Shown: positions 834 through 26,232 of the stretch, piece by piece
How the letters are laid out: the number at the start of each line of letters is the position of its first letter
How positions within the stretch are numbered: position 1 is the stretch's first letter
From: an uncultured Gammaproteobacteria bacterium
Lineage (GTDB): Bacteria; Patescibacteriota; Microgenomatia; UBA8517
Direction: 5' to 3'
Assembly: GCA_964524515.1 (NCBI GenBank)
Contig: CAZGEA010000001.1
Location: 297,522 to 361,521 of the forward strand
DNA: 64,000 bases
Program-made: the position numbers and the translations under genes
Notes under the pieces: generated by a model
The model's input: only the letters and a program-made list of their open reading frames with translations
Databases searched by the model: none
Told to the model about the DNA's origin: nothing

Positions 834-843
834 ATTTTTAAAA

Positions 844-3465
844 TTATTCTTTTAAACCAGATGATCTGAAATGAACAGATTTTACTTCAAAATTAAATGG
901 CTTATACATAGGCGATATTTTAATTTTTTCTATTTTTAATCCATCAACAGGTAAAATTACCTCGTAATTTCTAAAAATATCATCTGGAGTAATTGAAATA
1001 TTACCAGCTTCTTTCCAACTATTACTTTTGTCACTAAAGTATAAAAGATCTACATTTAAATTTTCATTAAAATTATTCATAACTTCACTAAATGTCTCAA
1101 TATTTTCAATATAACCATAAGGATTATTTAAAAACTCTTCAGTATCATTCAAATTCAATTCTTTAAACTCATCGTCAATTGGCCAAATTTCAGAAATACC
1201 CGGAGAATCATCAGATAAACTAGAGCGAAACAAAACTTTTACATATTTAGCGTTTACAGGACTAAAAAAATTAATAGTCTGAATACCCTCCTCAATTCTT
1301 TTAACTTCTTTAATCTCTGATACTTTTACCCAATTTTTATTATCTATTGATGTTTCTACAATATAATCAGTAGGTGAATTATTAGGGTATGCATTTATCC
1401 ATGCAATTCGACCAATGTTAATTGGTTTATCCAGTTCTAAAATTAAACCTTGCTTTGCATCATGCCATAAAATTCGATCAGGGCGCCAGGATGTTTTTAT
1501 ATTATCATCAATTAAATTTAAACCAATATCTTCTCTCCATTCACTTGTTGTCAAAACTTTCATATTTTTATACAAGTTTGTTTTATAAATATAATATTTA
1601 AATGCCATATCTCTCATTTTTTTATTCACTAAAACATTATTAAATTCCATTTTCTTATTATTAACAATTGGATATAAAATACTTTCAAATTCACCATAGT
1701 CTACTTTTATTCGTAATTTAATTTTATTTGGAGTCACACTTACAATTGGGTTTAAAAAAATAATTTCATCATTATCATATTTAAAATTTATCATTTTATA
1801 ATTACTAGCATTCTCCAATCGTTTTCTTAAAATTTCAGATGTATCAATTAATTTATTATCAGTGTAATAAAATGAATAAACTTTTCTCAAATCAAAATTG
1901 CTAATTTCTGAGATATTTTTTTCCAATTCAGAATAGTCAACTATCCTTTTAAAGTCATACCTATCCATCCCATACCTCCACGCAATTGCAGTCTCTTCAG
2001 GCATTGATGCTACTGAAAATGCATTGGAAAAATTTATCCTCATGTCATCAGCTACATCAAAATAAACCAAATCACCTTTATTCAAAACTGGCATTTTAGT
2101 TTTCAACTCAGCATAAAATCTATCTACAGGTTTACTTCTAAAATTAACAATTTTATTCTGATAATTAAATCCATATACTAAATTTCCCAATACTATAAAA
2201 ATAATAAATCCAAAAAGCACTCCTATTTTTTTCTTAGGTTTTTTAAATGCATAAATACCAATAAAGGAAAATAACAATGTCAGTGGAAAAAAAGAATGAG
2301 CCAAGTATCTATAATAAGTTTCATAAACTACAGTTGGACTATATGCACTGTATGCAGCCAAATTTAAAATTACCCAAAGCAAAAAAAATAAATAAATATT
2401 TCTTTTATATCCTTTAAAAAGTAATGAGAAAAGAAACAAAATAAACAATACAATTCCACCCAAAAAAACAGTTACAAATGAGTGTTCATTTAAAACCAAA
2501 AATTGAGTATTGTAAATTTTTTTAGATATAAAAAACCATCCAACAAAAAAAGTAACAAGTAAAGAAGTCATCATCCATCTTCTTTTTTCAAAATATCCAG
2601 AAAACTTCCTAGTAAAAATTAAAAATGAAATGAAAATTAAAAAAAATATTTCTCTACTACTTAATAATGAATATAGAAAAGAAGTAATCCAATCTGGAAT
2701 TACCAAGTTAGCAAATGAAGATAAAAACCCATAAGATAAATAGTAATTTCCACTTATTATCCCTGATATTAAATCTTTAACTTGTCCACTTCTCCCATCT
2801 GGATTTTGAAGAAAATATTTATAAAAAAAATAGATAAACGGAATAAGTCGTAATACACTTTTTAAAATAGACCTAGGTAAACTTTTAAACGTAAAAAACA
2901 GTAACTCAAAAAGAATAACTACTGATATTAAATAATGTGTCCTCGTCTGCACAAATTCAATACTAAAAATATATGACAAAAGAGCCAACATGTACCATTT
3001 ATTTTTTTCAGTCTTAAAATACTTAAAATAAGAAAAGGTCAGTATCGTCACCAGTATCACACTAAAACTCGTAACTACAGAATTAAAAAGTCTTATATAA
3101 GAATCAGATGCAATATAACCACAAGCATAAATAAATGCAGAAAGTAATGCTATTTTTTGAGAAAAAACTTTTGAAACTAAAAAATAAATCACAAATACAC
3201 TTAATAAATAAAACAAAAAAGTAGTCAAAAAATAAAATACTATATTGAGACCAAAAAAATAATAAACAGGAACGAAAGGAGTAATAATATATTTATAAGT
3301 TCCCTCACCAAATGGTCCATAACCAAAGTAACCAGCTTTCTCATTAATATGTTGAAGTTTAAAAAAAAGTGACTGATCATCTTGCCATGGAGTCATTAAT
3401 AAAAGCTGACCGTATGAAATTATTGTAGTTAAAAATAAAAAAAGATAAATCTTAACTTGTTTCAT
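844..3465 (-). CDS. large multi-pass membrane protein, putative GT-C-type glycosyltransferase with C-terminal discoidin (F5/8 type C)-like ectodomain
   Basis: 873-aa ORF. The N-terminal ~450 aa are highly hydrophobic with many predicted TM helices. The C-terminal soluble region has SIDNKNW...AKYVKV-type discoidin signatures. There is a 4-nt overlap with the downstream methyltransferase. Confidence 0.5.
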   Translation of the reverse strand: MKQVKIYLFLFLTTIISYGQLLLMTPWQDDQSLFFKLQHINEKAGYFGYGPFGEGTYKYIITPFVPVYYFFGLNIVFYFLTTFLFYLLSVFVIYFLVSKVFSQKIALLSAFIYACGYIASDSYIRLFNSVVTSFSVILVTILTFSYFKYFKTEKNKWYMLALLSYIFSIEFVQTRTHYLISVVILFELLFFTFKSLPRSILKSVLRLIPFIYFFYKYFLQNPDGRSGQVKDLISGIISGNYYLSYGFLSSFANLVIPDWITSFLYSLLSSREIFFLIFISFLIFTRKFSGYFEKRRWMMTSLLVTFFVGWFFISKKIYNTQFLVLNEHSFVTVFLGGIVLFILFLFSLLFKGYKRNIYLFFLLWVILNLAAYSAYSPTVVYETYYRYLAHSFFPLTLLFSFIGIYAFKKPKKKIGVLFGFIIFIVLGNLVYGFNYQNKIVNFRSKPVDRFYAELKTKMPVLNKGDLVYFDVADDMRINFSNAFSVASMPEETAIAWRYGMDRYDFKRIVDYSELEKNISEISNFDLRKVYSFYYTDNKLIDTSEILRKRLENASNYKMINFKYDNDEIIFLNPIVSVTPNKIKLRIKVDYGEFESILYPIVNNKKMEFNNVLVNKKMRDMAFKYYIYKTNLYKNMKVLTTSEWREDIGLNLIDDNIKTSWRPDRILWHDAKQGLILELDKPINIGRIAWINAYPNNSPTDYIVETSIDNKNWVKVSEIKEVKRIEEGIQTINFFSPVNAKYVKVLFRSSLSDDSPGISEIWPIDDEFKELNLNDTEEFLNNPYGYIENIETFSEVMNNFNENLNVDLLYFSDKSNSWKEAGNISITPDDIFRNYEVILPVDGLKIEKIKISPMYKPFNFEVKSVHFRSSGLKE

Positions 3466-4295
3466 TTCTTTCTAGCTACAAAAAACATATTTATGTTCGA
3501 ATCTGTATCTTGTTTTAACAAACCACCAAACAAAAAAGGTAAAATTTTAGATCTAAAATCAACCAACATAACTAATCTTTTTCCAACAAATGTCTTTCCA
3601 ATTTGAGATGGCAATGCAGTAACCAAAAAAGCTTCATGTAATCGTAAATGTGTTGGTGATAATGTTCCTTCTTTTTTTACAATTTCAAACCCAGCTTTTT
3701 TTAATTTATCTTCCCACCAAGTATGAGTTTGTAAATTAACGTGTTTAAATATGTTTTTATGAAATTTCCAGTAAGATTCAGCACTATCTTTTAAACCAAT
3801 ACTTTTCAAAAATGAATAAACAAGCAAATACTCTTTCATTTCTGGAGTTGGAACTGAAAAAACGAACTTCCCACCTTTCTTTAAAACCCTATGAACTTCC
3901 TTGATTACTTTTTCACAACTCTCAATATGTTCCATAACACTAACTGAAACTACAGTTTTATAACTATTATCTTTAAACGGTAAATTTCTTGCATCTGCAT
4001 AAAGTAACTTTTTGTATCTTTTACCATCCAATGCTTTTTTTAAATCATCTTCATTAACGTCAATACCAACTTCGATTTGATTAAAAACCACTCCAGCAAA
4101 CTCACCAAAACCACAACCTAGATCTAAAACTGGTGATTCCATTTCAACTTTCTCAAAACTCAGTGCTTCAATAGTTCTCCACAAAGCATGAGAAAAAGGA
4201 GATATTCTCAAAAAATCTTTTAAATATTCCTTCGAATCTTTATTTTTTTTAGTATTTCTTTTTTTTGAAACTATTTCTTTTTTATAAGTTGCCAT
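3462..4295 (-). CDS. class I SAM-dependent methyltransferase
   Basis: Motif I LDLGCGFGEF and a post-I acidic residue are present, followed by a VMEHI...GGKFVFSVP motif. Confidence 0.8.
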   Translation of the reverse strand: MATYKKEIVSKKRNTKKNKDSKEYLKDFLRISPFSHALWRTIEALSFEKVEMESPVLDLGCGFGEFAGVVFNQIEVGIDVNEDDLKKALDGKRYKKLLYADARNLPFKDNSYKTVVSVSVMEHIESCEKVIKEVHRVLKKGGKFVFSVPTPEMKEYLLVYSFLKSIGLKDSAESYWKFHKNIFKHVNLQTHTWWEDKLKKAGFEIVKKEGTLSPTHLRLHEAFLVTALPSQIGKTFVGKRLVMLVDFRSKILPFLFGGLLKQDTDSNINMFFVARKK

Positions 4296-6492
4296 GTGAA
4301 TTTGTATAAAATAAATCTAAATCAATTTTCTGCTTATTGTAAGGCGAAGATGAAGTTATGTCATCAACATCTTTTTTTGATTCACTTAAGATTACATCAT
4401 CTAACCACATTTTAGAAGTTAAATTATCTGCCATCTGAAATGATATTGTTAAGTACTTTGAATTTTCTGGCGCCCTCTCGTATACAGATTTTAAATTCCA
4501 TTTAATAGTTCCAAACAAACGTGATGAAATTGCTGAATAAATCGGCATTTTAGTTAAATCATCATCGCTCCAATAATCAATTCTCAAAAAACCATTTCTT
4601 TGTTTTGCTGAAAATTCGTTGTCAGACCTAATAAAACCATCAACCTTATACAAATATCCCGGCTTAACTGATATTAAATTTGATCTAATTCTAACAATCG
4701 AATAAGGACTTCCAGATGACAAAAACAAAATTGATCCTTTATTTTTATTACCGCTTGCACTATCCCAAACAAAATCACTATCATAATTTTCTTTATCAAC
4801 AACTGTCCATCCACTCAATCCTTCACTAAATTCAAATTTTTCTTTTATACCAAAATCAACTTTCCCCCAATCTGGAAATTTAGAAAAAACTAAAGCTTCA
4901 TCAGGCGCTTGCCAAGGTTTAAAAGTAGAAAACACCTGATATCTCATCAACTCTTCAATTGATAATCCATAAAAAGTATTTCTCAAAATATACATTGGTT
5001 TATTCCAATATTTCGCTAAATCCTTATATCCATAACTCATCCAGAAAAAAAACAGGTTAGCTGCCCAATCTGAATTCAAAATTGAATATTTTGCACCATC
5101 ATCCCTATGCTCTGACATTGAATAACTTCCGGATAATTCAAATTCTGTCTTAATCATTACTGGAGCTCCAGTTGGTGGATCAAATGGGTTAGCTGCAACA
5201 ACAGAATTAGGGTCTAAATTTTTATTTAACCAATCTGACAAAACATAATAACCCCACTCTTTTGTATAATAATAAGTATTCAATAAACTGTTTCTAAATG
5301 GAACAAAAACAGTTAATCCAATTAAAAATACTAATACAATTTTTGAAAAAAAATCATTAAATCTAATTCTCAACAGTTCATAAAAATGATAAATAAATAT
5401 TGAAGCAAAAATAAGTAAAAATGGAGTTATAGTTACAAAATTTCGAACATAAAAACCTCCAGCTGAAAAATATGTAAACACGAAGAAAAAGGGTAAGATT
5501 ATAGTCAACAAGAACAAAAATCTTTTAGGGTACTTAATAATACTCACAATCATTCCAAGTACAACTAAAACAAATTCAATCGGTCCATAATCATAATGAT
5601 ACAAATACGAAAAAGGGAAAAAATTAAGTTTATTAACCCCCATTGCATAACGAGCAGATACAGCACTAGTCCACATTTTTGCAGATTCAAAATGTATAAA
5701 AAAATAAGGATTTAATAAAACGAAAACAATTAGTACTGAAAAACCCAATATAAATACTTTTCTAGAAATCAACTGACCCAATTTTATATTCTTATTTACT
5801 ATTAATAAATCAAGATGTGCAAAAATAATTGGCAAAAAAGAAAATATTTGATATTTCATCGAAAAACTTGCACCAGCACAAAGCCCAGCATACAAATAAT
5901 TAACAGTTGTAGGTTTCTTCCACATTCTATAAGTAAAATACAATGACAAAATTAAGAAAAACGCATTATATGGATCGGGCAAATTCATATGAGCGGCCAT
6001 AACTTGTCTAAAATTTACAGTCAATAAAAATGCAGACAATAAACCTATGAAATTGTTAAATACCTTTCGACTAAATATATAAATCAATACAACACTGCCA
6101 ATACTAAACAATGAAACAATATATCTACCCCAAAATAAAGGGTAAAAAACTTTAGTCCCTATTATCTCAAGTCTCAAAATCCTCTCCCACTCAATAGAAC
6201 TTTTAGGCAATTGAACCAATCCATCAACTAAATTTAGTATATTTACTGCAAAATATTTTAAATAACTCAAGGGTATAAACAAAAATTTAAAAAAAACGAA
6301 ATTAATAAATATCGTTCCAGCTGGATAATCAAATCTATTAGGATCAATATTTCCCCGAGTAACCATATCAATTGCAGTCCCATACAAAATAGGCTCATCA
6401 GCATGATATTTGTTATATCCTGGATTTGTTCCTATTACCCTAAGAAGAGATGCTAATAATATTATTCCAAAAAATATATAATTTTTTCTCAT
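4282..6492 (-). CDS. multi-pass membrane glycosyltransferase (GT-C-like, DE motif in first loop) with C-terminal CBM4/9-like carbohydrate-binding domain
   Basis: ORF track gives 4282..6549; the likely true start is the internal Met of MRKNYIFFGIILL at 6492, which abuts the upstream stop. HADEPILYG follows the first TM, as in PMT/ArnT-type enzymes. The C-terminal ~150 aa resemble a CBM fold and end in WLDDVIL. Confidence 0.5.
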   Translation of the reverse strand: MRKNYIFFGIILLASLLRVIGTNPGYNKYHADEPILYGTAIDMVTRGNIDPNRFDYPAGTIFINFVFFKFLFIPLSYLKYFAVNILNLVDGLVQLPKSSIEWERILRLEIIGTKVFYPLFWGRYIVSLFSIGSVVLIYIFSRKVFNNFIGLLSAFLLTVNFRQVMAAHMNLPDPYNAFFLILSLYFTYRMWKKPTTVNYLYAGLCAGASFSMKYQIFSFLPIIFAHLDLLIVNKNIKLGQLISRKVFILGFSVLIVFVLLNPYFFIHFESAKMWTSAVSARYAMGVNKLNFFPFSYLYHYDYGPIEFVLVVLGMIVSIIKYPKRFLFLLTIILPFFFVFTYFSAGGFYVRNFVTITPFLLIFASIFIYHFYELLRIRFNDFFSKIVLVFLIGLTVFVPFRNSLLNTYYYTKEWGYYVLSDWLNKNLDPNSVVAANPFDPPTGAPVMIKTEFELSGSYSMSEHRDDGAKYSILNSDWAANLFFFWMSYGYKDLAKYWNKPMYILRNTFYGLSIEELMRYQVFSTFKPWQAPDEALVFSKFPDWGKVDFGIKEKFEFSEGLSGWTVVDKENYDSDFVWDSASGNKNKGSILFLSSGSPYSIVRIRSNLISVKPGYLYKVDGFIRSDNEFSAKQRNGFLRIDYWSDDDLTKMPIYSAISSRLFGTIKWNLKSVYERAPENSKYLTISFQMADNLTSKMWLDDVILSESKKDVDDITSSSPYNKQKIDLDLFYTNSHGNL

Positions 6493-7127
6493 TTCACTGC
6501 TGTAAAAATTATATGAGAAAAAGGCATTTTTTCTTCTGCAGAAAAACATTTAACTTTAAAGTTATTTTTCTTTAATAAAACCAACCAATCACTTTTTTTT
6601 CTAAAATAAACTTCAGAATAAATCTTTCTCTCAAAAACCATTGGAACGATAAAATGATCAAACGTCCATGCAATAAAATATTTCAACGAAAATTTAATAT
6701 CAATTTCCACAATTACCAATTTTCCGCCTTTCACTAATGATTTATAACAATTTGCAATAAGTTTTTCCTGATCATTAAAATTTCGAAGGTGATGAAGTAG
6801 ATGAAAAAGAACTATTATTTTACTTTTTGGTATCTTCAATCGCGTTACATCAGATTTAATAAACTTTACATTATCAACACCTCGAGTTGCCTCTCTTATT
6901 CTCTCATTACTTATTTCATAGGCTTTTATTTTTCTTTTCTTAGAACTTATACCAAGATAATTACTAAATATTCCCTCACCACAACCCAATTCAACGATAC
7001 TTCCAGATTTAGGAATATATTTTTCAACAATTTCATATGGAGCAACCATAAATCTCCAAGCCGAAAAAAATTTCTTCCATCCAACCTTCTGATAAAGATT
7101 TATTGTCTGATCTATGCTTGTATTCAT
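6489..7127 (-). CDS. class I SAM-dependent methyltransferase
   Basis: Motif I VELGCGEGIFSNY is followed by the KLVIVEID region. Confidence 0.8.
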   Translation of the reverse strand: MNTSIDQTINLYQKVGWKKFFSAWRFMVAPYEIVEKYIPKSGSIVELGCGEGIFSNYLGISSKKRKIKAYEISNERIREATRGVDNVKFIKSDVTRLKIPKSKIIVLFHLLHHLRNFNDQEKLIANCYKSLVKGGKLVIVEIDIKFSLKYFIAWTFDHFIVPMVFERKIYSEVYFRKKSDWLVLLKKNNFKVKCFSAEEKMPFSHIIFTAVK

Positions 7128-8677
7128 TATTAGCTATTATGGTACCATTCAAAATAAAAATGAGAAACAGGACATTTAAATTTTCAGCAATCGTATTTTT
7201 AATTACTTTTATTGTTTGGAGTGGTACTTTAAGCCAAACTTTTTTAGGTGAAGGTTATTTCTATTTTGAAAGTTGGAGAGGAATCATATCACCAACAATA
7301 GGTTACAAAGCTTTACTTTCATATGACAACTTTGCAAGAATTATGTTTACGATTGCACCTTTAATATTTAAAGATAATCTATTTCTATATCAACTTTTCC
7401 AACTTCTAACATTTAGTTCCCTCACATCAATTTTTTTCTTCATAATATACAAAATTACAAAAGATTTATCATCATCATTTCTTGCATCAATATTTTTTTT
7501 AAGTAGTGTAACTGGGACTTTTGAAATGATTGCTGAAGGAAATTATGATAGATTTGTACAAAGAATTCCAAATTTTATTCCTGCATTAATAGCATTTTAT
7601 TTTTTATATCTATTCATAAAATCAAACAAAAAGACACATTTACTAATTTCAATATTATTATTTTGTATTGCCATGTTCATGGCTCACTTCACTTTTATAA
7701 TGACCCCACTTTTTATAATTTACCCTCTGGTACAAATTTTAATTAAAAAAACAACAACAAAAGAAATTATTAAAAAAATATTAATCTCCATAACTTTCTT
7801 AACAATGGGAATTCTTTTCGTCTATCCTGATCCATACCATCAAAGTAAAAGCATATTAAAATTTTTAAATAGTGATCCAAAATTACTAGAAAAAATTATT
7901 TATCAAATACCAACTGTTGCTTTTCCGTATGAACTAATACCAAAAACATCGATACTACTTAAAAATTTGTTTGATATTAAATCAATAAAACCACCATATA
8001 TATCATCACTTCAAATTCTCACATTCATTCTTGTTTACATGTTTACAAGATCACTCTATTACTATTACAAAAACGATAAAGATAAATTCAGTATATTTTT
8101 AACTTTTTTTGGAGCCCTTGTTTCAGGTTTTGTTTTATATTTTTATACCGACGATAAATTAAATCCATTTATTGAATTTGGAAGTGGAAGACAATACTTT
8201 ATATTCATTATTTACATATCAGTATTAATTGCACTATCTTTGAAATACTTTATTAAAAATAATAGTAATTTTAAAAAAGTAACTATAGTTTTAAGTCTAT
8301 TTATCCTATTATGGAATTTAAACTATATAAACAAAAAAATATACTCTTTAGAATACTTAGTGAAGGCAAACAGAGTATACACAACATACATCAAAAAAAT
8401 TTCTCCAAATTTCACAGACAGCACTGTCATTTTTGCTCGTTCAAGAATTCACTGGCCAAATGACTTAATCTTCAAATTTTATACACCAAAAGGAGCCAGA
8501 CAAGTTACAACACTTTCAGATTTAAAAGAATTAAACCTAAAAAATTATGATGATGTATATGTATTTGATTATGACTTTCAAACTGATCCATCAGAAGAGC
8601 CTAATCCACAAAAAGGTATATTTCTTGATTTAACAAATCAATTTAGAAACAAATCTGTTGATTTATCATCATGGTAG
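7103..8677 (+). CDS. polytopic membrane protein of unknown function (candidate glycan polymerase/GT-C-like)
   Basis: 524-aa ORF with at least 10 hydrophobic segments. I see no recognisable catalytic motif. It sits in a glycosylation context. Confidence 0.45.
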   Translation: MSDLCLYSLLAIMVPFKIKMRNRTFKFSAIVFLITFIVWSGTLSQTFLGEGYFYFESWRGIISPTIGYKALLSYDNFARIMFTIAPLIFKDNLFLYQLFQLLTFSSLTSIFFFIIYKITKDLSSSFLASIFFLSSVTGTFEMIAEGNYDRFVQRIPNFIPALIAFYFLYLFIKSNKKTHLLISILLFCIAMFMAHFTFIMTPLFIIYPLVQILIKKTTTKEIIKKILISITFLTMGILFVYPDPYHQSKSILKFLNSDPKLLEKIIYQIPTVAFPYELIPKTSILLKNLFDIKSIKPPYISSLQILTFILVYMFTRSLYYYYKNDKDKFSIFLTFFGALVSGFVLYFYTDDKLNPFIEFGSGRQYFIFIIYISVLIALSLKYFIKNNSNFKKVTIVLSLFILLWNLNYINKKIYSLEYLVKANRVYTTYIKKISPNFTDSTVIFARSRIHWPNDLIFKFYTPKGARQVTTLSDLKELNLKNYDDVYVFDYDFQTDPSEEPNPQKGIFLDLTNQFRNKSVDLSSW

Positions 8678-8693
8678 TAGTATATAAACAATA

Positions 8694-9404
8694 GTGAAAA
8701 ATAAATTTTACCCACCAATCTCAATTGTAATCCCTGCATACAATGAAGAAGAAAATATTAAAGAGATACTTTTAAATACAACTAAAAATCTCCCAAAATA
8801 TTTTAAAGATTTTGAAATAATAATTGTCAACGACGGCTCAAATGATAAAACTGGTGAAATTGTTAATAAATTTGCAAAAAATAAAAAATATATAAAAATC
8901 ATCGATCAAAAAAATTCAGGTTATAGTAAAGCAATGCTTGCCGGAATTAAAATTGCATCAAAAGAATTTGTTGCTTATATGCCTGCTGATGGTCAATTTT
9001 TAATTAATGACATGAGGCATTGTTTTGAAGTTATGAAAGAAAACGATTTAATATTAGGATACAGAGGTGGTAGACAAGATTATACAACAAGAAGAGTTAT
9101 ATTCTCATATGGCTACTTATTACTTCTTTTATTAATGTTTGATATTAAATATATGGATGTAGGATGGGTAAACATATGGAAAACCAAAAAAGTACAAAGA
9201 ACTAAACTAACTGCAGTCGGAGGTATTTTTATTCTCACTGAAATACTTGTTCGCTTTAAACAAAAAAAATATAAAATAACTGAAGCCCCTTCATATTATC
9301 ATCCAAGAATTGGCGGTGTTGCTAAAAATGCCAGTTATAAAGTAGTACTAAATACTTTTCTAAATGCAATCAAACTATGGATAAGCTTAAAATTGACAGT
9401 TTAA
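8694..9404 (+). CDS. GT2 polyprenol-phosphate glycosyltransferase (DPM1/GtrB-like)
   Basis: GTG start. The sequence SIVIPAYNEEENI...IIIVNDGSNDKT has the DxD region. There is a C-terminal hydrophobic helix. Confidence 0.75.
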   Translation: MKNKFYPPISIVIPAYNEEENIKEILLNTTKNLPKYFKDFEIIIVNDGSNDKTGEIVNKFAKNKKYIKIIDQKNSGYSKAMLAGIKIASKEFVAYMPADGQFLINDMRHCFEVMKENDLILGYRGGRQDYTTRRVIFSYGYLLLLLLMFDIKYMDVGWVNIWKTKKVQRTKLTAVGGIFILTEILVRFKQKKYKITEAPSYYHPRIGGVAKNASYKVVLNTFLNAIKLWISLKLTV

Positions 9405-9432
9405 TTGTTAATGAATAAGATAAGATTTACAT

Positions 9433-11088
9433 ATGACTCCTGAAATAAAATTTAATGAAATAATAAATTCTCCCCAAGAAAGAATTCTGGACCTTTCAAG
9501 ACAAAAGGATAAAGTCAGAAACATCCCAGTTTGCCTTATTATTCCCCCATCAAGTTTCTTAGCTGACGAGAGAGTCTTTCCATTCTTGGGTATTTTAAAA
9601 GTTGCAGCACAATTGCGTGACAATGGAAACGAAGTTGATGTTATCGATTGTTCTGGATATGGAAACCCGGATGAAATAGTCAAAAAATACATTGACGAAC
9701 ACCCAAGTGTTAAAACATTTGGACTTACTGCAACAACTCCACAAATTGTTTCTTGTGGGAAAATCCTTCAACAAATAAGGGATAGCTCTCATGATTCAAA
9801 AGTAATACTCGGTGGAACACATGCAACACTTACACATGCAGGTTATTTACAAGAATTAAAAACTGGAACTGAGCGCGGTCGAGCAACTGTAGCCTTAAGC
9901 CAACTTAATGAATTATTCGACACAATAGTGGCAGGTGATGGCGAAATGTCGATTTTTTATGCAATCGATAATGAAAATAATCAAAAATTAATCGATGCTG
10001 GCAATTTAAGTTCCCCACTATTTATAAAACGTGGTGAATTAGACCAATACACTCCAGCCGCTAGAGAACTAATTGATCACGAAAGTTACAAATACTACAT
10101 TGATGGCAAAAGAGCAGCAAGTCTAATAGCTCAACTTGGCTGTCCCTTTGAATGTGGTTTTTGTGGTGGGCGAGATTCTCAATTTTTAAGAATGATAAGA
10201 ACCAGAACGATTCCAAATATAATCGATGAAATGGGTCAAATAATAGATTCATCGAAAAATTGGGAGGAACCAATTCGAGCTATTATGTTTTATGATGACG
10301 AACTCAATGTTTCACCTCAAAATCTTGAAAATCTTTGTAAAGCATTGATTGATTACCAAGCTGAGTCTGGTTTAGAACTTCGCTTTAGAGGTTTTGTAAA
10401 AGCTGAATTATTCACCCAAGAACAAGCAAACTTAATGTATAAAGCTGGTTTTAGAGAAGTTTTAAGTGGTGTTGAATCAGGATCAGATCTAATGCTTAAA
10501 GCTATGAGAAAACACACAAGTAGAGACATCAACTCAAGATGTGTTAAATATGCCCATAATGCTGGATTGAATTTTAAAGCATTAATGTCCTTAGGTCACC
10601 CTGGCGAATCATATGAAACAATACAAGAATCAATTGATTGGGTAAAAGATAATTTAAGAGTTGGAGATCAAGTTGATTGGACTGTTATCACAGTTTTCTT
10701 TGGCACTCCCTATTCTGATAGGGCAACATATATAAAAGAAGATGATGTTTGGGTTTATGAAACAAAAGTTTTAGACGATAAAACAAAAACTACAAAAATT
10801 CTTAAACTTTACAGTAAAAGAACCGATCAATTCCTTGACGCCCAATTTTACAAAGGTATTCCAGATGGCTACAAAGCATATGTTTGGACAGATTTCATTA
10901 CTCAAGATGAATTAGTCACTCAAAGAGGAAGAGCTGAAAATGAAACTCGCGCACACTTAAATCTACCCCACATTCAATCAGTTACAGAAATGCAATACGA
11001 ACACACAATGGGTATGCCTGGCAATAGCAATGAAGCGCTTCCATCAAAGATACTTCGATCCTCAAAAACCATCTACTCAGCAAATTAA
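9433..11088 (+). CDS. B12-binding domain radical SAM enzyme (class B radical SAM, putative sugar C-methyltransferase/modifier)
   Basis: The N-terminal region has a B12-binding-like Rossmann fold (IPVCLIIPP...VDVIDCSGYG). The CPFECGFC segment gives a CxxxCxxC radical SAM cluster motif. Total length is ~550 aa. Confidence 0.8.
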   Translation: MTPEIKFNEIINSPQERILDLSRQKDKVRNIPVCLIIPPSSFLADERVFPFLGILKVAAQLRDNGNEVDVIDCSGYGNPDEIVKKYIDEHPSVKTFGLTATTPQIVSCGKILQQIRDSSHDSKVILGGTHATLTHAGYLQELKTGTERGRATVALSQLNELFDTIVAGDGEMSIFYAIDNENNQKLIDAGNLSSPLFIKRGELDQYTPAARELIDHESYKYYIDGKRAASLIAQLGCPFECGFCGGRDSQFLRMIRTRTIPNIIDEMGQIIDSSKNWEEPIRAIMFYDDELNVSPQNLENLCKALIDYQAESGLELRFRGFVKAELFTQEQANLMYKAGFREVLSGVESGSDLMLKAMRKHTSRDINSRCVKYAHNAGLNFKALMSLGHPGESYETIQESIDWVKDNLRVGDQVDWTVITVFFGTPYSDRATYIKEDDVWVYETKVLDDKTKTTKILKLYSKRTDQFLDAQFYKGIPDGYKAYVWTDFITQDELVTQRGRAENETRAHLNLPHIQSVTEMQYEHTMGMPGNSNEALPSKILRSSKTIYSAN

Positions 11089-11089
11089 C

Positions 11090-12103
11090 TTAATTCATAA
11101 AATCTTTATTCAATCTAGTTAAAGAATCAAGATAAGAACCAACATTAATTCTCTCCATACAATATTTAAATATTTGATCATCATCCACTTTCCTAAATTT
11201 TTGAACAATACTTCTTTTTTTCAATATCTCACCAATATTTAGTATATTCCACCCGATTGATTTATAAATCACTACTATTTCTTTTAATTTAAATTTAAAT
11301 AAATAATAGACAACCAAAAAATTAAGTACCAATAAATGCATAAATAAAATTATTAACAAATTTAAAAAACTTAAATTCTTAATTAATGAAGAAATTCTAT
11401 TTTTAAATGAATGATAATTAACAGAAAAAGGATTCATTCGTTTTGCAGAATAAGCCAATTTATGATAAATAAAAGTATTAGGAAAATACAAAACTTTATT
11501 TCCCAATAACCAAACCTTCCAACAATAATCTGTCTCCTCAAAATATGATCCAAAAGTATCATCAAACAAACCAACTTTATCTATTATTGACTTACGAGTC
11601 ATCATACAAGCCCCCTTCGCAGAAAATATAATTTTCTCTTTACTAAATTCCACACTATCTTTCTTAAAAAACCCCCAATGCTGCAAAAAACCAATTCTTG
11701 TTAAGAAAGAACCACAATTATCAAGTTTCTTATTTGTGTCCATTAAATATATTTTGGGTTGGATTACACCAATATTTAAATCCGATTCCATTTTATTAAC
11801 TAAGATATTAAGTAAATCACTTTTTACAGTTGTGTCATTATTAAGTAGCAACACATATTTTCCCTTTGCTCTTTTGTAACCAATATTATTAGCTGGTGCA
11901 AATCCCAAATTACCATTATTTACAATTAACATTTCACCTCTAGATTGATCTACATATTTGTAACTTCCATCAGTTGATGCATTATCAACTACAATTAATT
12001 CATAATTTTGATATTTCAATTTTCTAATTGACTGCAAACACTTCTTAAAAACATCTCCACCATTCCAATTCACAATTATTATTGATACCTTTGCGATTTT
12101 CAT
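11090..12103 (-). CDS. GT2 glycosyltransferase
   Basis: VSIIIVNWNGGD...ELIVVDNASTDGS has the DxD region. Overall it resembles the rhamnosyltransferase/WcaA type. Confidence 0.8.
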   Translation of the reverse strand: MKIAKVSIIIVNWNGGDVFKKCLQSIRKLKYQNYELIVVDNASTDGSYKYVDQSRGEMLIVNNGNLGFAPANNIGYKRAKGKYVLLLNNDTTVKSDLLNILVNKMESDLNIGVIQPKIYLMDTNKKLDNCGSFLTRIGFLQHWGFFKKDSVEFSKEKIIFSAKGACMMTRKSIIDKVGLFDDTFGSYFEETDYCWKVWLLGNKVLYFPNTFIYHKLAYSAKRMNPFSVNYHSFKNRISSLIKNLSFLNLLIILFMHLLVLNFLVVYYLFKFKLKEIVVIYKSIGWNILNIGEILKKRSIVQKFRKVDDDQIFKYCMERINVGSYLDSLTRLNKDFMN

Positions 12104-12107
12104 ATAT

Positions 12108-13079
12108 TTGGATTACTATACACTAAACATGAAACAAAAAGCGACAAATCTTTCTTTTATAATACCAGCAAAAAATGAAGACGGCTCAATAAAAATTTTG
12201 ATCAACGAAATTTTAAAGGTTACAAAAACTCTTAAAAAAAGTTACGAAATAATCGTAATTGATGATGGCTCAACGGACAAAACATACGAAGAAGTACTTA
12301 AAATACACAAGAAAAATAAAAAAATAAAAATAATTAAACTAAGAGGAAATTGGGGAAAATCAACTGCATTGCAAATTGGTTTTGGTTATGCAAAAGGTGA
12401 AATCGTATTTACAATGGATGCAGATCTTCAGGACAATCCGAAGGAAATTCCAAATTTTATTAAAAAAATAAACGAAGGCTATGATTTAGTTAGCGGATGG
12501 AAAAAAAATCGACACGATCCAATATCTAAAGTTATACCATCTAGAATTTTAAATAATATTCTAATACCATTTGCGACCGGTGTTAAATTGCACGATAACA
12601 ATTGTGGTTTTAAAGCATATAAAGCAGAAGTAATTAATAATTTAAACTTATATGGTGAACTTTATAGATTTATTCCAATCCTAGCATCAAAACAAAATTT
12701 TAAGATTACAGAAATTGTAGTAGATCATAGACAAAGAAAATACGGAAAAAGTAAATTTGGATGGGAAAGAAACCTAAAAGGATTTCTTGACTTAATAACA
12801 ATCGTTTTCTTGACAGGATATTCAAAAAGACCAGCACATTTTTTTGGAACAATTGGTGTGCTATCATTTCTGCCAGGATTTTTTATTGGAACATATTTAA
12901 CATATCTAAGAATTACGACAGGTGGAATAGAGTTTCACTTACCACTATTAATTTTAGGTCTACTACTTATGATGATCGGTGTTCAACTAATTACAACTGG
13001 TTTAGTTGCAGAGATGATTACAAATTACAGTCTTGCTTCAAAAGATTTAAATAAAATTATAAAAATAAAAAATATTTAA
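12108..13079 (+). CDS. polyprenol-phosphate sugar synthase (GtrB/ArnC/DPM1-type GT2 with C-terminal TM helices)
   Basis: LSFIIPAKNEDGSI...IIVIDDGSTDKT...DADLQDNP...SGWKKNRHD is the canonical GtrB/ArnC signature. Two C-terminal TM helices follow. The ORF opens with TTG at 12108; an ATG at 12129 (MKQKATN) is the more likely start. Confidence 0.85.
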   Translation: MDYYTLNMKQKATNLSFIIPAKNEDGSIKILINEILKVTKTLKKSYEIIVIDDGSTDKTYEEVLKIHKKNKKIKIIKLRGNWGKSTALQIGFGYAKGEIVFTMDADLQDNPKEIPNFIKKINEGYDLVSGWKKNRHDPISKVIPSRILNNILIPFATGVKLHDNNCGFKAYKAEVINNLNLYGELYRFIPILASKQNFKITEIVVDHRQRKYGKSKFGWERNLKGFLDLITIVFLTGYSKRPAHFFGTIGVLSFLPGFFIGTYLTYLRITTGGIEFHLPLLILGLLLMMIGVQLITTGLVAEMITNYSLASKDLNKIIKIKNI

Positions 13080-14101
13080 TTAATATTTCCCTTTATTATT
13101 TTTTTAATCAAATTTCGCCCATTTGCTTGAGACAAAAACAAATAAATAATGTAATCTGTTAGTAATAAATTAGTTGGCAATTCATAAAATCCAGCAAAAT
13201 CTTGATATTTAATTGTTTTATACAAACCAACAAAAAAACTTGGGAATAACAAATTCACATAAATTACCCAAAAAACTAACTTTAAAATATCAAATGGATT
13301 CTTGAAATCTATATAATTAAATTTTCTCTTTCCTACAACAGGTAAATAAGTAACTGAAACATCTCTTTTTTGTCTTTTAAGTTCATGTAAAAGATCACTT
13401 CTTTTATGAAAAAACCCTGCGTCTTCAACATATGCGAATCTATTAAACCCAATCTCAGACATTTGTATAGGAATTGCAATATCAACATAATTAAAAGTAT
13501 CAGGATTTTTAATTACCTTTTTCAATAAATTCATTCTATATACACACATACCTACAGGTGGACATTTCTTAGAATTAATTAAAAAAACTTTATAATCTTT
13601 ATTTTCTTCAACTGCTAAACTTTCAATTGTAGGTAACAAAAATGATAACATTGACCACAATTGCAATGAATTCCATGATAAATACCTATTAAAAGCTGAT
13701 TGCCTATCGCTCGGCATGTATCTTGTTGTTGATCCCGCAATTGTCTCATCACTTAAAAGTGGTTTTATAACGTTCTTAATCCAATTTTTAGATACTAATT
13801 CTGCATCAGAATCTAAATATAAAAAATATTCACCAGTAGCTTTTTTAAAACCAAAAGTTTTCGCAGGTTCTGCAAGTTTTTTAATATTTTTTACATAACG
13901 CACTGGATACTTACCGACAACTTGCTTAGTATTATCATCTGTTGCAATTGAATCGACAACAATAACTTCTATCTTATTTTTAGGATAATTTTGTTTATAA
14001 ATTGATTTTAAACAATCCTCAATGTAACTTGCAGAATTATAAGTCGGCACAACAATGCTAACTTTGGGGAATTTATTTACTTTCTTTCTCATATCTCTCA
14101 T
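13076..14101 (-). CDS. GT2 glycosyltransferase
   Basis: VSIVVPTYNSASYIEDCL...IEVIVVDSIATDDNT is followed by a DSDAEL segment carrying the DxD motif. Confidence 0.75.
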   Translation of the reverse strand: MRDMRKKVNKFPKVSIVVPTYNSASYIEDCLKSIYKQNYPKNKIEVIVVDSIATDDNTKQVVGKYPVRYVKNIKKLAEPAKTFGFKKATGEYFLYLDSDAELVSKNWIKNVIKPLLSDETIAGSTTRYMPSDRQSAFNRYLSWNSLQLWSMLSFLLPTIESLAVEENKDYKVFLINSKKCPPVGMCVYRMNLLKKVIKNPDTFNYVDIAIPIQMSEIGFNRFAYVEDAGFFHKRSDLLHELKRQKRDVSVTYLPVVGKRKFNYIDFKNPFDILKLVFWVIYVNLLFPSFFVGLYKTIKYQDFAGFYELPTNLLLTDYIIYLFLSQANGRNLIKKIIKGNIN

Positions 14102-14170
14102 TTTCCTTAATAATAAATTTAGTCAATCCTATATCTTATGTATACCTACTCACTTTCGATACACTTTAGC

Positions 14171-14192
14171 AATTTCGGCTAATCCCGAAATT
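14171..14192. promoter_or_regulatory. perfect 8-bp inverted repeat (aatttcgg-N6-ccgaaatt) in the only sizeable intergenic gap
   Basis: Seen directly in the sequence. A T-rich tract follows on the plus strand. The gap lies between two minus-strand genes. Confidence 0.3.
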
Positions 14193-14221
14193 CCTACATT
14201 TTCTTTTTTATTTATCATAAA

Positions 14222-16318
14222 TTACAAAATATAAAATACCTTAAAATGTTTAATGTATTTCAAACATGTGTCAATAGGATTTAAGAATAAATTAATGTAT
14301 CTTGCCTCTTGCCCTACAAAAGGTTCAACAAAATTCCCATTTTTCGGCTGTTCACCAAGATATGAAATTCTCCAATCCTCTGGTAGTGCTGACTTAATTC
14401 TTGTCCAATTCTTATCATCAATAGAAGTCTCATCATATCCTACCAATAAAGGTTTACACTTGACCTTTGTATCGTAATTAATTTCAAGACGCCATAATTT
14501 ATAAATATCGCCTAAATCAAATTTAATTCCATAGTCAGTAAATTTATAATTCGGATCAGAAACCACGCGCTCAACAATACCTTTTTTCAAATATTTTTTA
14601 TCATTTTTCCAAACATTCAATACTGAAACATTATCAACTTTTTCTGAATATACCGGATTAACATATTTATCTAAATATGTATCGTAATATGATCTTTGAT
14701 CCGTGCCATCATAAACTAAAGTGATTGCATACTCACCATTATTTAAATAACCACTTCGATTGGCATTATGAAAATTAATATCAGGCCTAACCCACAATCT
14801 TGGAATATTTGGAATAAGTTCATAAACTAATGACAAATTTGCCCCATATTCAGCATTTTTATTTATCCAAGAAATTCCATATCTATATGGAGCTCCAAGT
14901 GTAAAACCCCAATAAGGAAATTGATTCTCCTTTGCTCCAGACAATCCACCGATTAATTCATTAAAATATTGATTCTCATTTGGATGAATTTGAATCATTT
15001 TTCCAATAAACATATATAATCCAAAACTTAACACTACTAAAAATATAATTTTAGTAACATGTGATCTCATCAAATGAAAAATGAAAGCAGCTCCAATACC
15101 GGCCAAAATTGCAATTGGCGGTATAAATTCCATAATCTGTCTAATACCTCCATATATTGAAGCTCCCTTCCAAACAACTCTAATAATCGGAACTAAAAAC
15201 CATATCAATATTAAAAAGGTTGTAAAATTTTTATCCTTCTTAAAATTCAATAAAAAATATATAAAACCAAAAACTAAAAAAACTAAAATTACTAATGGTG
15301 TTGTGTATAATATCCACTGAATAGGATAAGTTGTAGTTCCAAACGGGCCAAGAAATCTACTCTCAACAATTCCTCCTGTACCAATTGTTTTATAGAAACC
15401 AAAAACTCTTTGAATTTTAGATATTGGATCTGCCCACAAATATGGCCAACTTCCAACAAAAATAAAAATACCAACTAGAAAAGCAAAAACAGAAGAAAAA
15501 ATATACTTAAGAGATTTAAAATACGAAAAATATTCACTTCTATTCACTATTATAAAAATAAGAAACCAAGGCAAAATAACAAATGGAATAAATAAAATAT
15601 TAAATTTAGTTCCCAACGCTAAACCAAAAAACAATCCAGATAAAATAATCCATTTTAAATTTTTATAAACAGTTCCTTTCCAAACAGAAAATATCATAAA
15701 CGCCCAAAATACTGTCTCAGGTATATCTTTCTCGGTATTAAAATGTGATTCTGACCAAAACAAAGGATAACTAGCAAGAAATAAAGCAGCCATTAAACCT
15801 GCAAATCTACCATAAACCTTAGATATCCAATAATAAATCAATCCAACTAAACAAGAAGATAAAAAAACTCCATACAAACGATATGAATCAATATCATTAA
15901 CAATTCTAAGCTTTGCAAAAAATATTCTATTAAATACAGAAGATAAAATATCAGATAATGGAGGATGTCCATCACCATCGATTCTTAAAAAAAAGTCCAA
16001 ATTTTGATCAGTTATTTGATAAACACTCCGAGTAGGAACTTTTTCTTTTGGAATATTTGCATCAATTGCCAAACTATCAGGATTTTGCCAATACCATTCA
16101 TTTTTATTTTCATGATTTTCAAAATACTTTGGAAGATCCAGGTAATCTCTTCTACCTGTTAAAAAATAATGTAGATACGATTGTCCACGAGGAAGATGAT
16201 TAATTGTATCCCAATTAATTCCATAATGAGTTAATGTAAAAGTAAGACCTAAAAAGTATAAAAATCCTAAAAGAAAAGATACAACTAAATCCTTATTTAC
16301 TTTATTATAAAATTGCAT
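14222..16318 (-). CDS. multi-pass membrane protein, putative GT-C-type glycosyltransferase with C-terminal discoidin-like domain
   Basis: 698 aa. The N-terminal ~480 aa form a polytopic membrane region. The C-terminus carries YDETSIDDKNW...EARYINLF, a discoidin-type signature. Confidence 0.5.
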   Translation of the reverse strand: MQFYNKVNKDLVVSFLLGFLYFLGLTFTLTHYGINWDTINHLPRGQSYLHYFLTGRRDYLDLPKYFENHENKNEWYWQNPDSLAIDANIPKEKVPTRSVYQITDQNLDFFLRIDGDGHPPLSDILSSVFNRIFFAKLRIVNDIDSYRLYGVFLSSCLVGLIYYWISKVYGRFAGLMAALFLASYPLFWSESHFNTEKDIPETVFWAFMIFSVWKGTVYKNLKWIILSGLFFGLALGTKFNILFIPFVILPWFLIFIIVNRSEYFSYFKSLKYIFSSVFAFLVGIFIFVGSWPYLWADPISKIQRVFGFYKTIGTGGIVESRFLGPFGTTTYPIQWILYTTPLVILVFLVFGFIYFLLNFKKDKNFTTFLILIWFLVPIIRVVWKGASIYGGIRQIMEFIPPIAILAGIGAAFIFHLMRSHVTKIIFLVVLSFGLYMFIGKMIQIHPNENQYFNELIGGLSGAKENQFPYWGFTLGAPYRYGISWINKNAEYGANLSLVYELIPNIPRLWVRPDINFHNANRSGYLNNGEYAITLVYDGTDQRSYYDTYLDKYVNPVYSEKVDNVSVLNVWKNDKKYLKKGIVERVVSDPNYKFTDYGIKFDLGDIYKLWRLEINYDTKVKCKPLLVGYDETSIDDKNWTRIKSALPEDWRISYLGEQPKNGNFVEPFVGQEARYINLFLNPIDTCLKYIKHFKVFYIL

Positions 16319-16346
16319 GCGCTCTATTCTCTCACTCTATTTATCA

Positions 16347-17771
16347 TCAATCAATATTTTTTAATTTAAAAGTCTTAATAAGTTTAGATAAAATCTTAAA
16401 TATTCCTTTTCTGTTAACATTAACAACATGAATTTTCAAATTTTCAAGTTCTTTTATTACCAAATTTTCATCAACTCCATTACTTTGAGTTATAAAAATT
16501 TTCTTATCCCTTGTCTTTGACATTAATGCTTTTTCCTTTTTATTAAACAGTATTTCTCTCAGTTTTTCTCCTTTTCTTATTCCCGTATATTTTATTTCTA
16601 TATCTTTTCCTGGAATTAAACCTGAAAGTCTAATAATATTCTCTGCTAAATCAACAATCTTAACTGGCTCTCCCATATCTAAAACAAAAAGCTCACCACC
16701 TTCACCCATCGCACCCGCCTTTAGAATAAGTTGAGCTGCTTCAGGTATTGTCATAAAATATCTAACCATTCGTGGATCAGTAATAGTCAGTGGACCACCC
16801 ATATCAATCTGCTTTCTGAAAGTTGGCACAACACTTCCATAACTATCCAGAACATTACCAAATCTAACTGTAACAAATTTTGTTTTTCTCTTTTTATTAA
16901 AGTGTCTTGCGATCGCCTCAGTCAAAAGTTTTGTTGCACCCATCACACTCTTTGGATTTGCTGCCTTATCTGTCGAAATTAGAACAAACTTCTTAACTTT
17001 ATATTTAAATGCTGTTTTTACAACATTGTATGTTCCAAAAACATTATTTCTAACTGCCTCTTCTGGAAACTCCTCCATCAATGGGACATGTTTATAAGCT
17101 GCAGCGTGATAAACAAAGTCAGGCTTATATTTTTGAAACAAATCACTTAATTTTTTCTCATCATGAATATTACCAATAACACAATTAATCGTATTTTTTG
17201 GAAAATTATGTCTTAATTCAGAATCCAATTCAAACACTCCATTTTCCCACCAATCAAAAAGAATTAAACTTTTAGGATTATATGCAGCAATCTGTCTTGA
17301 TAATTCAGAACCAATTGACCCAGCCGCTCCAGTAACAAAAACCTTTTTATCTTTAAAAAATTCCTTTAACTCTTCAACATCACTTTTAACAACTGGCCTT
17401 CCTAACAAATCTTCAACTTGAACTTTTCTAATTGTTCTAATATGCGCCTTTCCTTCAATTATTTCCCTTACACGAGGTACAATACGAACATCAACACGTG
17501 CCAAATTGCATACTTTTAAATACTCTGAAATTCTTTCACCTTCAGCTGATGGAATAGCAATTATTACTTCATCAATCTTCCATTTATTAATTATGTCAAT
17601 CAATTGATTTTGTGTTCCCAAGACTTTAACACCTAATATATAATTTCCAATTTTATCCTTATCGTCGTCAACAAAACCGACGACCTTAAAATCCAATGAT
17701 TTATCCTTATTAATCTCATTCAAAACATCGCATCCTGCTACTCCAGCACCAATAATAATTATATTTTTCAT
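16347..17771 (-). CDS. CapD/PglF/WbpM-family nucleotide-sugar 4,6-dehydratase (soluble form)
   Basis: The N-terminal Rossmann motif IIIIGAGVAGCDV is followed by a second one, VFVTGAAGSIGSEL. The domain order is typical of Polysacc_synt_2 proteins. The N-terminal TM region is absent. Confidence 0.8.
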   Translation of the reverse strand: MKNIIIIGAGVAGCDVLNEINKDKSLDFKVVGFVDDDKDKIGNYILGVKVLGTQNQLIDIINKWKIDEVIIAIPSAEGERISEYLKVCNLARVDVRIVPRVREIIEGKAHIRTIRKVQVEDLLGRPVVKSDVEELKEFFKDKKVFVTGAAGSIGSELSRQIAAYNPKSLILFDWWENGVFELDSELRHNFPKNTINCVIGNIHDEKKLSDLFQKYKPDFVYHAAAYKHVPLMEEFPEEAVRNNVFGTYNVVKTAFKYKVKKFVLISTDKAANPKSVMGATKLLTEAIARHFNKKRKTKFVTVRFGNVLDSYGSVVPTFRKQIDMGGPLTITDPRMVRYFMTIPEAAQLILKAGAMGEGGELFVLDMGEPVKIVDLAENIIRLSGLIPGKDIEIKYTGIRKGEKLREILFNKKEKALMSKTRDKKIFITQSNGVDENLVIKELENLKIHVVNVNRKGIFKILSKLIKTFKLKNID

Positions 17772-19728: not shown

Positions 19729-19755
19729 TCTCTATCGATTATAATACTATATCTT

Positions 19756-26230: not shown

Positions 26231-26232
26231 GT

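Follow-up and report, generated by a model that had tools for sequence, protein, structure and literature searches.

The gene at positions 9433–11088 of a 64-kb window of uncultured bacterial DNA (the whole stretch analyzed, 64,000 nt of contig CAZGEA010000001.1, to which all unprefixed coordinates refer) encodes a class B radical S-adenosylmethionine (SAM) enzyme, rSAM, that very probably acts in glycan tailoring. The explanation we favor, at a probability of about 0.5, is that rSAM is a soluble cytoplasmic accessory enzyme that tailors a sugar of a cell-surface glycan by methylcobalamin-dependent C-methylation. For the methylation of an unactivated sugar carbon as such, we put the chances at even or a shade lower. 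Sugar-carbon methylation is the most likely chemistry because the cobalamin site is conserved and most characterized class B enzymes are methylases, several of them acting on sugars (GenK, GenD1, Fms7 and MoeK5; PMC9204698; PMC13459092). The gene and its parts are as follows.

9433–11088, + strand: class B (B12-binding domain) radical SAM enzyme, recognized by its Pfam domains; ATG start, 551 aa
9520–10002, + strand: N-terminal Rossmann-like cobalamin-binding domain, approximately residues 30–190
10132–10644, + strand: radical SAM core, residues 234–404 (PF04055)
10141–10164, + strand: [4Fe-4S] motif C237-x3-C241-x2-C244 (C237-P-F-E-C241-G-F-C244)
10720–11085, + strand: C-terminal family-specific domain, approximately residues 430–551, delimited by conservation and by a modeled β-hairpin plus helix

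Pfam detects PF02310 (B12-binding) at residues 52–155 (44.2 bits, gathering threshold 32.1, E = 2e-11) and PF04055 (Radical_SAM) at residues 234–404 (58.1 bits, gathering threshold 29.5, E = 1.6e-15). The CX3CX2C motif and partial TIM barrel that mark the radical SAM superfamily are in place, with C237, C241 and C244 unchanged in 78/78 distinct orthologs, and so is the N-terminal Rossmann-like B12-binding domain that defines class B. This architecture had been read from the sequence in the initial annotation, on the strength of an N-terminal B12-binding fold and the motif CPFECGFC. Both features stand, and the B12-binding domain, which might have been lost on proper alignment, is present on Pfam alignment.

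An AlphaFold2 model built from 42 homologs has a mean predicted local distance difference test score of 90 and a predicted template-modeling score of 0.90. Its best matches in the PDB are all class B-type two-domain enzymes, led by AprD4 (score 25.3, 397 residues aligned), MgmA (23.0) and TsrM (22.6) and followed by CysS (22.1), TokK (17.4) and OxsB (15.0). The core aligns to, and superposes on, those of AprD4, MgmA and TsrM. AprD4 is also the top PDB match by sequence (E = 9.6e-10 from the single sequence, 1e-19 from a profile). Because orthologs score down to E = 1e-195 and the model is confident, the reality of the ORF (open reading frame) is far beyond chance. The first ∼15–30 residues are unconserved and have low model confidence, so the true start could sit slightly downstream of the annotated ATG. 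No transmembrane-like or hydrophobic segment was found in the protein, and charged and polar residues predominate among its invariant positions (YDDE.N, R319, K323, K360, K382, H389, E392, D415, D429, K474, R498 and E502). The C-terminal domain (∼430–551) has no Pfam match; Y473, K474, G475, Y480, R498 and E502 are invariant there in the ortholog alignment, and this domain presumably binds substrate.

In OxsB, TsrM and TokK, cobalamin is contacted by a Gly-Gly on β4, a Gly-Glu at the start of α5, a GxSxL-type motif and the β1–α1 'His loop' (PMC9204698). We mapped the positions of these motifs onto the modeled secondary structure of rSAM and assessed conservation over the 78 distinct orthologs, which represent >10 phyla. 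By the published definitions, contact motifs for base-off cobalamin are present, as judged from sequence and model. G127-G128, at the end of β4, is kept in every ortholog. G168-D169-G170-E171 is kept in 76–78 of the 78, and its second half, G170-E171, which begins α5, in 77. The GxSxL-like motif consists of G97, T99 and T101 on β3 (both threonines in 77/78). The long His loop has 14 residues (38–51), among which S40, F42, L43, D45, E46, R47, V48 and F49 are near-invariant (73–77/78). NCBIfam models of the cobalamin type (PhpK, BchE, BzaD, HpnR and Sden_1168) align through the N-terminal domain, from residues 27–51 onward; alignment of the AprD4 and HpnJ models is confined to the core. The N-terminal domain would thus most probably be a functional cofactor site that binds cobalamin base-off. 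Conservation of the cobalamin-binding residues had been singled out in the initial annotation as informative, and the motifs proved nearly invariant, which argues for a true cobalamin enzyme and hence favors C-methylation.

ORFs were called and clustered in the loci of the family, and the genetic context was counted over the 72 non-redundant loci with at least four called neighbors. A recognized glycan gene lies within four genes of rSAM in 60/72 loci, and a glycosyltransferase directly adjoins it in 42. Enzymes related to nucleotide sugars (short-chain dehydrogenase/reductase (SDR), aminotransferase, nucleotidyltransferase or AsnB-like) were seen in 31 loci and a nearby class-I methyltransferase in 18. 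The embedding in a glycan cluster, first noted for the window, therefore holds in relatives from many phyla as well. The gene order of the window recurs in close relatives: methyltransferase, small GT2, [GalU-like NTP_transferase], rSAM, GT2, ..., ArnC-like GT2, GT2, PMT_2. The small GT2, of ∼229–255 aa, is found upstream of rSAM, directly or past one NTP_transferase gene, in 9/11 close relatives (L001, L004–L009, L011 and L012). In Woesebacteria and Daviesbacteria, the gene directly upstream of rSAM encodes a GalU-like NTP_transferase (160 bits).

Other lineages pair rSAM with different sugar genes. In Acidobacteriota, Nitrospirota and one predicted viral contig, one orthologous SDR gene lies within ∼260 nt upstream of rSAM. 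Its product is an ortholog of UDP-glucuronate decarboxylase, that is, UDP-xylose synthase (UXS; human UXS1, 2b69, E = 1e-122; UDP, uridine diphosphate). The UXS orthologs beside rSAM are:

L019, 6746–7744
L020
L060
L071, 6958–7962
L073
L077
L124, 4984–5928 (a predicted viral contig of 393 kb, on which the pairing recurs)

In Acanthopleuribacter pedis, none of the other six neighbors scanned is related to glycans; they encode FtsEX, a sigma-54 activator, a STAS protein, AtuA and a zinc-finger protein. Set among such genes, UXS and rSAM may form a two-gene cassette for the synthesis of a modified UDP-sugar. Two further loci (L079 and L050) have a partner resembling UDP-glucuronate 4-epimerases, including MoeE5. 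A Rosetta-stone fusion was also found: P0275 (L086 6001–8109, 702 aa) joins B12-binding, Radical_SAM and Exostosin GT47 (86 bits) domains, and its gene is surrounded by a one-strand array of GT2, GT8, GT11 and methyltransferase genes, plus a Cpn10 gene. GT47-like genes adjoin rSAM in several further loci. Because the partners are GalU-like, UXS, epimerase-like and GT47 proteins and rSAM itself is soluble and polar, a cytoplasmic nucleotide-activated sugar is the favored substrate; judged from sequence, the reaction would on balance take place at the nucleotide-sugar level.

Two further arrangements were observed among the loci. In Latescibacterota (L063 4727–16990 and L076), rSAM has the gene for a GT2-TPR protein of 1016 aa on one side and, on the other, two flagellin genes and FliD; these flagellin and FliD neighbors suggest a role in flagellin glycosylation there. 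In L030 (3819–15145) and L067 (475–9935), several class B rSAM genes lie close together, those of L030 being the ortholog and paralogs at ∼22–24% identity. This clustering suggests multi-step radical tailoring in some glycan clusters.

We infer for rSAM cobalamin binding, a UDP-sugar substrate and methyl transfer, and propose the following sequence of events. C237, C241 and C244 would hold the [4Fe-4S] cluster, and the N-terminal Rossmann domain would hold cobalamin base-off. A UDP-activated sugar would be made by a GalU-like nucleotidyltransferase or by the UDP-glucuronate-derived routes seen in relatives. On the cytoplasmic side, rSAM would then alter an unactivated carbon of this UDP-sugar, or possibly of a polyprenyl-phosphate derivative. 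If the chemistry follows that of GenK, Fom3 and MoeK5, one SAM would methylate cob(I)alamin and a second would yield a 5'-deoxyadenosyl radical; this radical would abstract a hydrogen from the sugar, and the substrate radical would take the methyl group from methylcobalamin. The adjacent GT2 enzymes, and finally ArnC-like and PMT_2 (GT-C) enzymes, would move the modified sugar into the glycan.

The rSAM family is large, uncharacterized and widely exchanged. The identical protein is encoded on an NCBI contig of 425 kb, and the nearest non-identical relatives (50–59% identity) come from Woesebacteria, Daviesbacteria and similar metagenome-assembled genomes (MAGs). A scan of one genome per GTDB species gave 420 confirmed places, and the best 80 of these 420, at 44–56% identity, are spread over Patescibacteria, Nanoarchaeota, Elusimicrobiota, Nitrospirota (including Nitrospira defluvii), Acidobacteriota, Planctomycetota, Omnitrophota, Latescibacterota and Nitrospinota. 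Two cultured Acidobacteriota, A. pedis and Sulfidibacter corallicola, carry the gene. A profile search of 1.84 billion representative proteins returned 2,118 matches at E ≤ 1e-30. A C-methylated sugar had been called unusual for this lineage in the initial annotation. For the enzyme this does not hold, because Woesebacteria, Daviesbacteria, Paceibacterota and many other phyla commonly have orthologs. A tblastn search of plasmids and GenBank phages gave only distant class B relatives (BchE, HpnR and a protein of Streptomyces phage SF3) at ∼24–26% identity, the BchE genes on plasmids being ∼25% identical to rSAM by BLAST. In the literature, we found no paper that deals with the family, nor any that describes class B rSAM enzymes from clusters for surface glycans.

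Several side observations concern the relatives. MAGs labeled 'uncultured Gammaproteobacteria' (L006, L008, L009, L012 and L013) have Woesebacteria-like synteny and the closest orthologs (51–56% identity), and the taxonomic labels of these records look unreliable. Predicted viral contigs from IMG/VR, 141 in all (up to 393 kb, GC 0.30–0.64), also encode relatives. The best 80 of these 141 (L088–L167; e.g. L124 6001–7524 and L106 6001–7488) are 41–49% identical, about the same as bacterial orthologs from other phyla. Long arrays of co-directional genes surround many of them, and two contigs hold two copies each. Those neighbors on these contigs that could be labeled, solely by BLAST similarity to annotated bacterial clusters, are of glycan type (SDR, DegT, GT2 and FkbM-type). 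The predicted viral contigs showed no DNA similarity to GenBank phages, and protein searches of them gave one weak glycosyltransferase match only.

About a dozen high-scoring relatives of 650–930 aa, including P0245, P0246, P0247, P0249, P0253, P0263, P0289 and P0300, have an intein inside the CX3CX2C motif (for example, ...GQLGCPYR|C-ISGDE...LISHN|CSFCSGR). P0245 (L087 6001–8718) matches Intein_splicing and LAGLIDADG, and P0246 matches Intein_splicing and HINT; in P0343 the intein is at a second site. Four very long predicted proteins, P0309 (2096 aa), P0357 (2331 aa), P0384 and P0390, repeat the B12-binding plus Radical_SAM module four to five times in tandem, and one of them has a SPASM domain as well; these could be real multi-module enzymes or gene-calling fusions.

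How well does C-methylation of a sugar withstand scrutiny? No NCBIfam model reaches its cut-off. The best match is a PhpK subfamily of P-methyltransferases (TIGR04479; 98.2 bits against 600, residues 49–406), followed by BchE (TIGR02026; 84 against 481), HpnJ (TIGR03471; 64.8 against 577.6, core only) and the AprD4 family (NF033070; 64.1 against 500, core only). BzaD, HpnR, Sden_1168 and TIGR04072 align as well, all below cut-off, and the families of GenK, GenD1, MoeK5 and Fom3 are not among the NCBIfam matches. The subfamily assignment sought at the outset thus succeeded as far as B12-binding and Radical_SAM, but reached no curated family, and no known non-methylating clade either. The protein is best filed as an uncharacterized member of class B radical SAM, having the class B architectural features examined.

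Several points weigh against the favored explanation. Because no curated cut-off is reached, homology does not assign the chemistry. None of the operon partners is obligatory across all loci, and because partner genes differ between lineages, the substrate is not pinned down. No match to a cobalamin transporter or salvage family was obtained among the scanned ORFs of at least 120 aa in the 64-kb window (Pfam), and an Rfam scan of the window gave no cobalamin riboswitch; that scan and a tRNA scan found no RNA families or tRNAs there. The host genome belongs to Patescibacteria (Microgenomates), and cobalamin synthesis is not known from such organisms. The literature reports no C-methyl sugar from any organism carrying the gene. 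Class B-type enzymes also perform ring contraction and other reactions, as does OxsB and, putatively, HpnJ (PMC13459092). The predicted C-methylated sugar thus agrees with the architecture, the glycan context and the cobalamin motifs, but C-methylation itself is not established, PhpK scoring 98 against 600.

The strongest alternative is radical sugar chemistry without methylation: AprD4-like 1,2-diol dehydration to a deoxy-keto sugar with subsequent SDR reduction, ring contraction or rearrangement of the HpnJ, Cds or OxsB kind, or epimerization. We consider this unlikely, though a serious competitor, and the same goes for its corollary that the N-terminal domain is structural or binds cobalamin for a role other than methyl transfer. 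In its favor, AprD4, the best PDB match by sequence, acts on a sugar, and it is paired with a reductase, AprD3. In Acidobacteriota, Nitrospirota and other loci, an extended SDR is encoded within ∼260 nt upstream of rSAM, a position that would suit a reductase; yet this SDR is a clear UXS ortholog, not an AprD3-like ketoreductase, and in the window no SDR gene adjoins rSAM, the nearest being >5 kb off. HpnJ (65 bits) is proposed to contract lipid-linked glucosamine supplied by a GT2 enzyme, and Cds and PtmC are analogous. AprD4, however, binds no cobalamin, and its NCBIfam model covers the core only. The N-terminal domain of rSAM, in contrast, passes the Pfam B12-binding threshold, and a merely structural role for it is hard to explain because the GG, GE and His-loop positions are near-invariant across phyla.

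A second alternative, which we regard as improbable, is that rSAM acts on a non-sugar component of the envelope, such as the polyprenyl carrier or another lipid (compare GrsA/B, Hgm, HpnP/R and the ladderane enzymes), or on a protein or peptide acceptor. Many class B enzymes do modify lipids (PMC13459092), rSAM has weak NCBIfam matches to the lipid-type families TIGR04072 and HpnR, and many enzymes of the cluster depend on polyprenyl phosphate (ArnC-like GT2 and 10 or more PMT_2). But lipid modification is judged unlikely because rSAM is soluble, with mostly charged or polar invariant residues, and because its partners are nucleotide-sugar enzymes (GalU-like, UXS, UDP-glucuronate epimerase-like and DegT) plus a fused GT47; moreover, the minimal UXS–rSAM cassette of L019 is away from lipid genes.

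Finally, nucleotide-linked substrates have a precedent in the Fom1 cytidylyltransferase/Fom3 pair, in which such a substrate is made and then modified by a class B enzyme. That rSAM is a PhpK- or Fom3-like P- or C-methyltransferase for phosphonate or phosphinate decoration of glycans has in its favor the top NCBIfam match to a PhpK-family subfamily, the match to Sden_1168 and the nucleotidyltransferase directly upstream in relatives, but is most improbable given a PhpK score far under its cut-off, the GalU-like nature of that nucleotidyltransferase and the absence of phosphonate-pathway families among the Pfam-scanned ORFs of the window; it was rejected as unlikely, a search for a PEP-mutase-like (phosphoenolpyruvate mutase-like) motif having drawn a blank in the ORFs of the 85 bacterial and archaeal loci and in those of window positions 1–20000.

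The window as a whole is a glycan supercluster of ∼60 kb. GT2 and GT4 genes are numerous in it, and it also holds at least 10 PMT_2 (ArnT-like GT-C) genes and genes for two Wzx-like flippases, a PseB/CapD-like dehydratase, an epimerase and a deacetylase. The genes around rSAM, together with the remaining methyltransferase genes and trmD, are:

3462–4295, − strand: class-I SAM methyltransferase, 277 aa (Pfam)
4282–6549, − strand: PMT_2 (GT-C) membrane glycosyltransferase, 755 aa (Pfam)
6489–7127, − strand: class-I SAM methyltransferase, 212 aa (Pfam); divergent from the putative rSAM operon; synteny cluster c17, shared with L001, L007, L008 and L009
7103–8677, + strand: polytopic membrane protein, 524 aa, with 8 or more hydrophobic segments; matches nothing in Pfam or NCBIfam
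8694–9404, + strand: small GT2 glycosyltransferase, 236 aa (Glycos_transf_2, 94 bits); co-directional, 28 nt upstream of rSAM
11090–12103, − strand: GT2 glycosyltransferase, 337 aa (Pfam); convergent with rSAM; position kept in relatives (cluster c4)
12108–13079, + strand: ArnC/GtrB-type polyprenyl-phosphate glycosyltransferase, 323 aa (PRK10714, 182.6 bits, full length, below the equivalog cut-off); position kept in L001, L006–L009 and L011
13076–14101, − strand: GT2 glycosyltransferase, 341 aa (Pfam); synteny cluster c14
14222–16318, − strand: PMT_2 (ArnT-like GT-C) membrane glycosyltransferase, 698 aa (Pfam); L001 has PMT_2 at the same position
19756–20514, + strand: class-I SAM methyltransferase, 252 aa (Pfam)
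38347–39006, − strand: class-I SAM methyltransferase, 219 aa (Pfam)
60691–61392: TrmD gene, whose named relatives belong to the Microgenomates group and Patescibacteria

The polytopic membrane protein gene, the small GT2 gene and rSAM probably form, in that order, a three-gene operon on the + strand. In the Woesebacteria locus L001, an ORF ∼7 kb upstream encodes a protein similar to the C-terminal part of the membrane protein. Two elements of the initial annotation are borne out here: rSAM does lie between GT2 genes, those at 8694–9404 and 11090–12103, and the four class-I SAM methyltransferases named at 3462, 6489, 19756 and 38347 all score well above their Pfam thresholds.

Further features of the window were noted. 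Ten PMT_2 paralogs (4282–6549, 14222–16318, 28162–29832, 31501–33150, 34972–36684, 47332–49056, 49083–50630, 51382–52845, 52842–54332 and 55301–56890) amount to a concentration of lipid-linked-sugar transferases that is unusual in a small genome. Interleaved with them are genes for a DHH/DHHA1 phosphoesterase (54314–55291, − strand) and a VTT/DedA-domain membrane protein (34458–34997, − strand), which may have a part in recycling the polyprenyl-phosphate carrier. At the cluster edge, the 873-aa product of 844–3465 (− strand) contains an F5/8 type C (discoidin, galactose-binding-like) domain and may be a surface carbohydrate-binding protein. Besides the polytopic protein gene (7103–8677), large ORFs without a Pfam match lie at 25049–26293, 29795–31498, 33157–34452, 39003–40523 and 44151–45893. 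Most of the window, with its genes on the minus strand, has a strongly negative GC skew (−0.2 to −0.36), and the skew is near zero only at 8001–10000, inside the + strand operon with rSAM; the skew tracks the coding strand.

A broader proposal can be offered tentatively, at odds clearly below even. The family may be an unrecognized, widespread group of cobalamin-dependent rSAM enzymes that make a C-methylated or radically rearranged UDP-sugar, from UDP-glucose, UDP-glucuronate or UDP-xylose, to be incorporated into glycans on the surface of Patescibacteria, DPANN archaea, Nitrospirota, Acidobacteriota and other groups, with marine and other viruses carrying the gene, at times with an intein in it, to remodel host or virion glycans. 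Class B sugar chemistry has so far been known from antibiotic pathways. A cobalamin-dependent modifier of nucleotide sugars would represent a new reaction type in primary glycan biosynthesis, and many uncultured lineages would be expected to have in their envelopes a sugar yet to be discovered. Cell-surface glycan synthesis would then be cobalamin-dependent in ultra-small symbionts unable to make B12, and B12-auxotrophic Patescibacteria and DPANN would depend for their surface chemistry on corrinoid from the community or host. Were rSAM instead an AprD4-like dehydratase, it would provide a new radical route to deoxy sugars in glycans. The resulting sugar chemistry could be new. The question is directly testable, because the cultured A. 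pedis and S. corallicola carry orthologs beside a UXS gene.

Known systems resemble rSAM to differing degrees. The alignments to BchE and PhpK take in the cobalamin domain (84 and 98 bits), but rSAM has no tetrapyrrole or phosphinate context. HpnJ, with its functional counterparts Cds and PtmC, is likewise a class B-type rSAM downstream of a GT2 and acting on a sugar, its contraction of a lipid-linked hexose being a biochemically unproven proposal. In contrast to HpnJ, whose model gives a core-only score below cut-off, rSAM lacks a hopanoid or archaeal tetraether context; no hopanoid genes were seen among the Pfam-scanned window ORFs or the annotated relatives. The NTP_transferase gene directly upstream of rSAM in relatives recalls Fom1 and the C-methylase Fom3, which acts on cytidylyl-hydroxyethylphosphonate (HEP-CMP), yet rSAM loci lack a PEP-mutase-like motif and their nucleotidyltransferase is GalU-like. 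AprD4 (PDB 6fd2), the 1,2-diol dehydratase of apramycin synthesis, shares the two-domain layout and acts on a sugar ring, but it is cobalamin-free and its N-terminal domain is only remotely Rossmann-like, whereas the rSAM family keeps invariant cobalamin motifs.

The sugar C-methyltransferases of aminoglycoside and moenomycin synthesis, GenK, GenD1, Fms7 and MoeK5, have the same B12-binding plus CX3CX2C layout and a sugar-pathway context. The resemblance extends further for MoeK5, in that some rSAM loci hold enzymes for UDP-glucuronate-derived sugars and the epimerase-like partner in L079 also matches MoeE5. This likeness is one of architecture and context, with orthology not demonstrated. Unlike these enzymes, rSAM resides in primary cell-surface glycan clusters rather than antibiotic clusters, probably works at the nucleotide-sugar level, and belongs to a family with a conserved C-terminal domain of its own.

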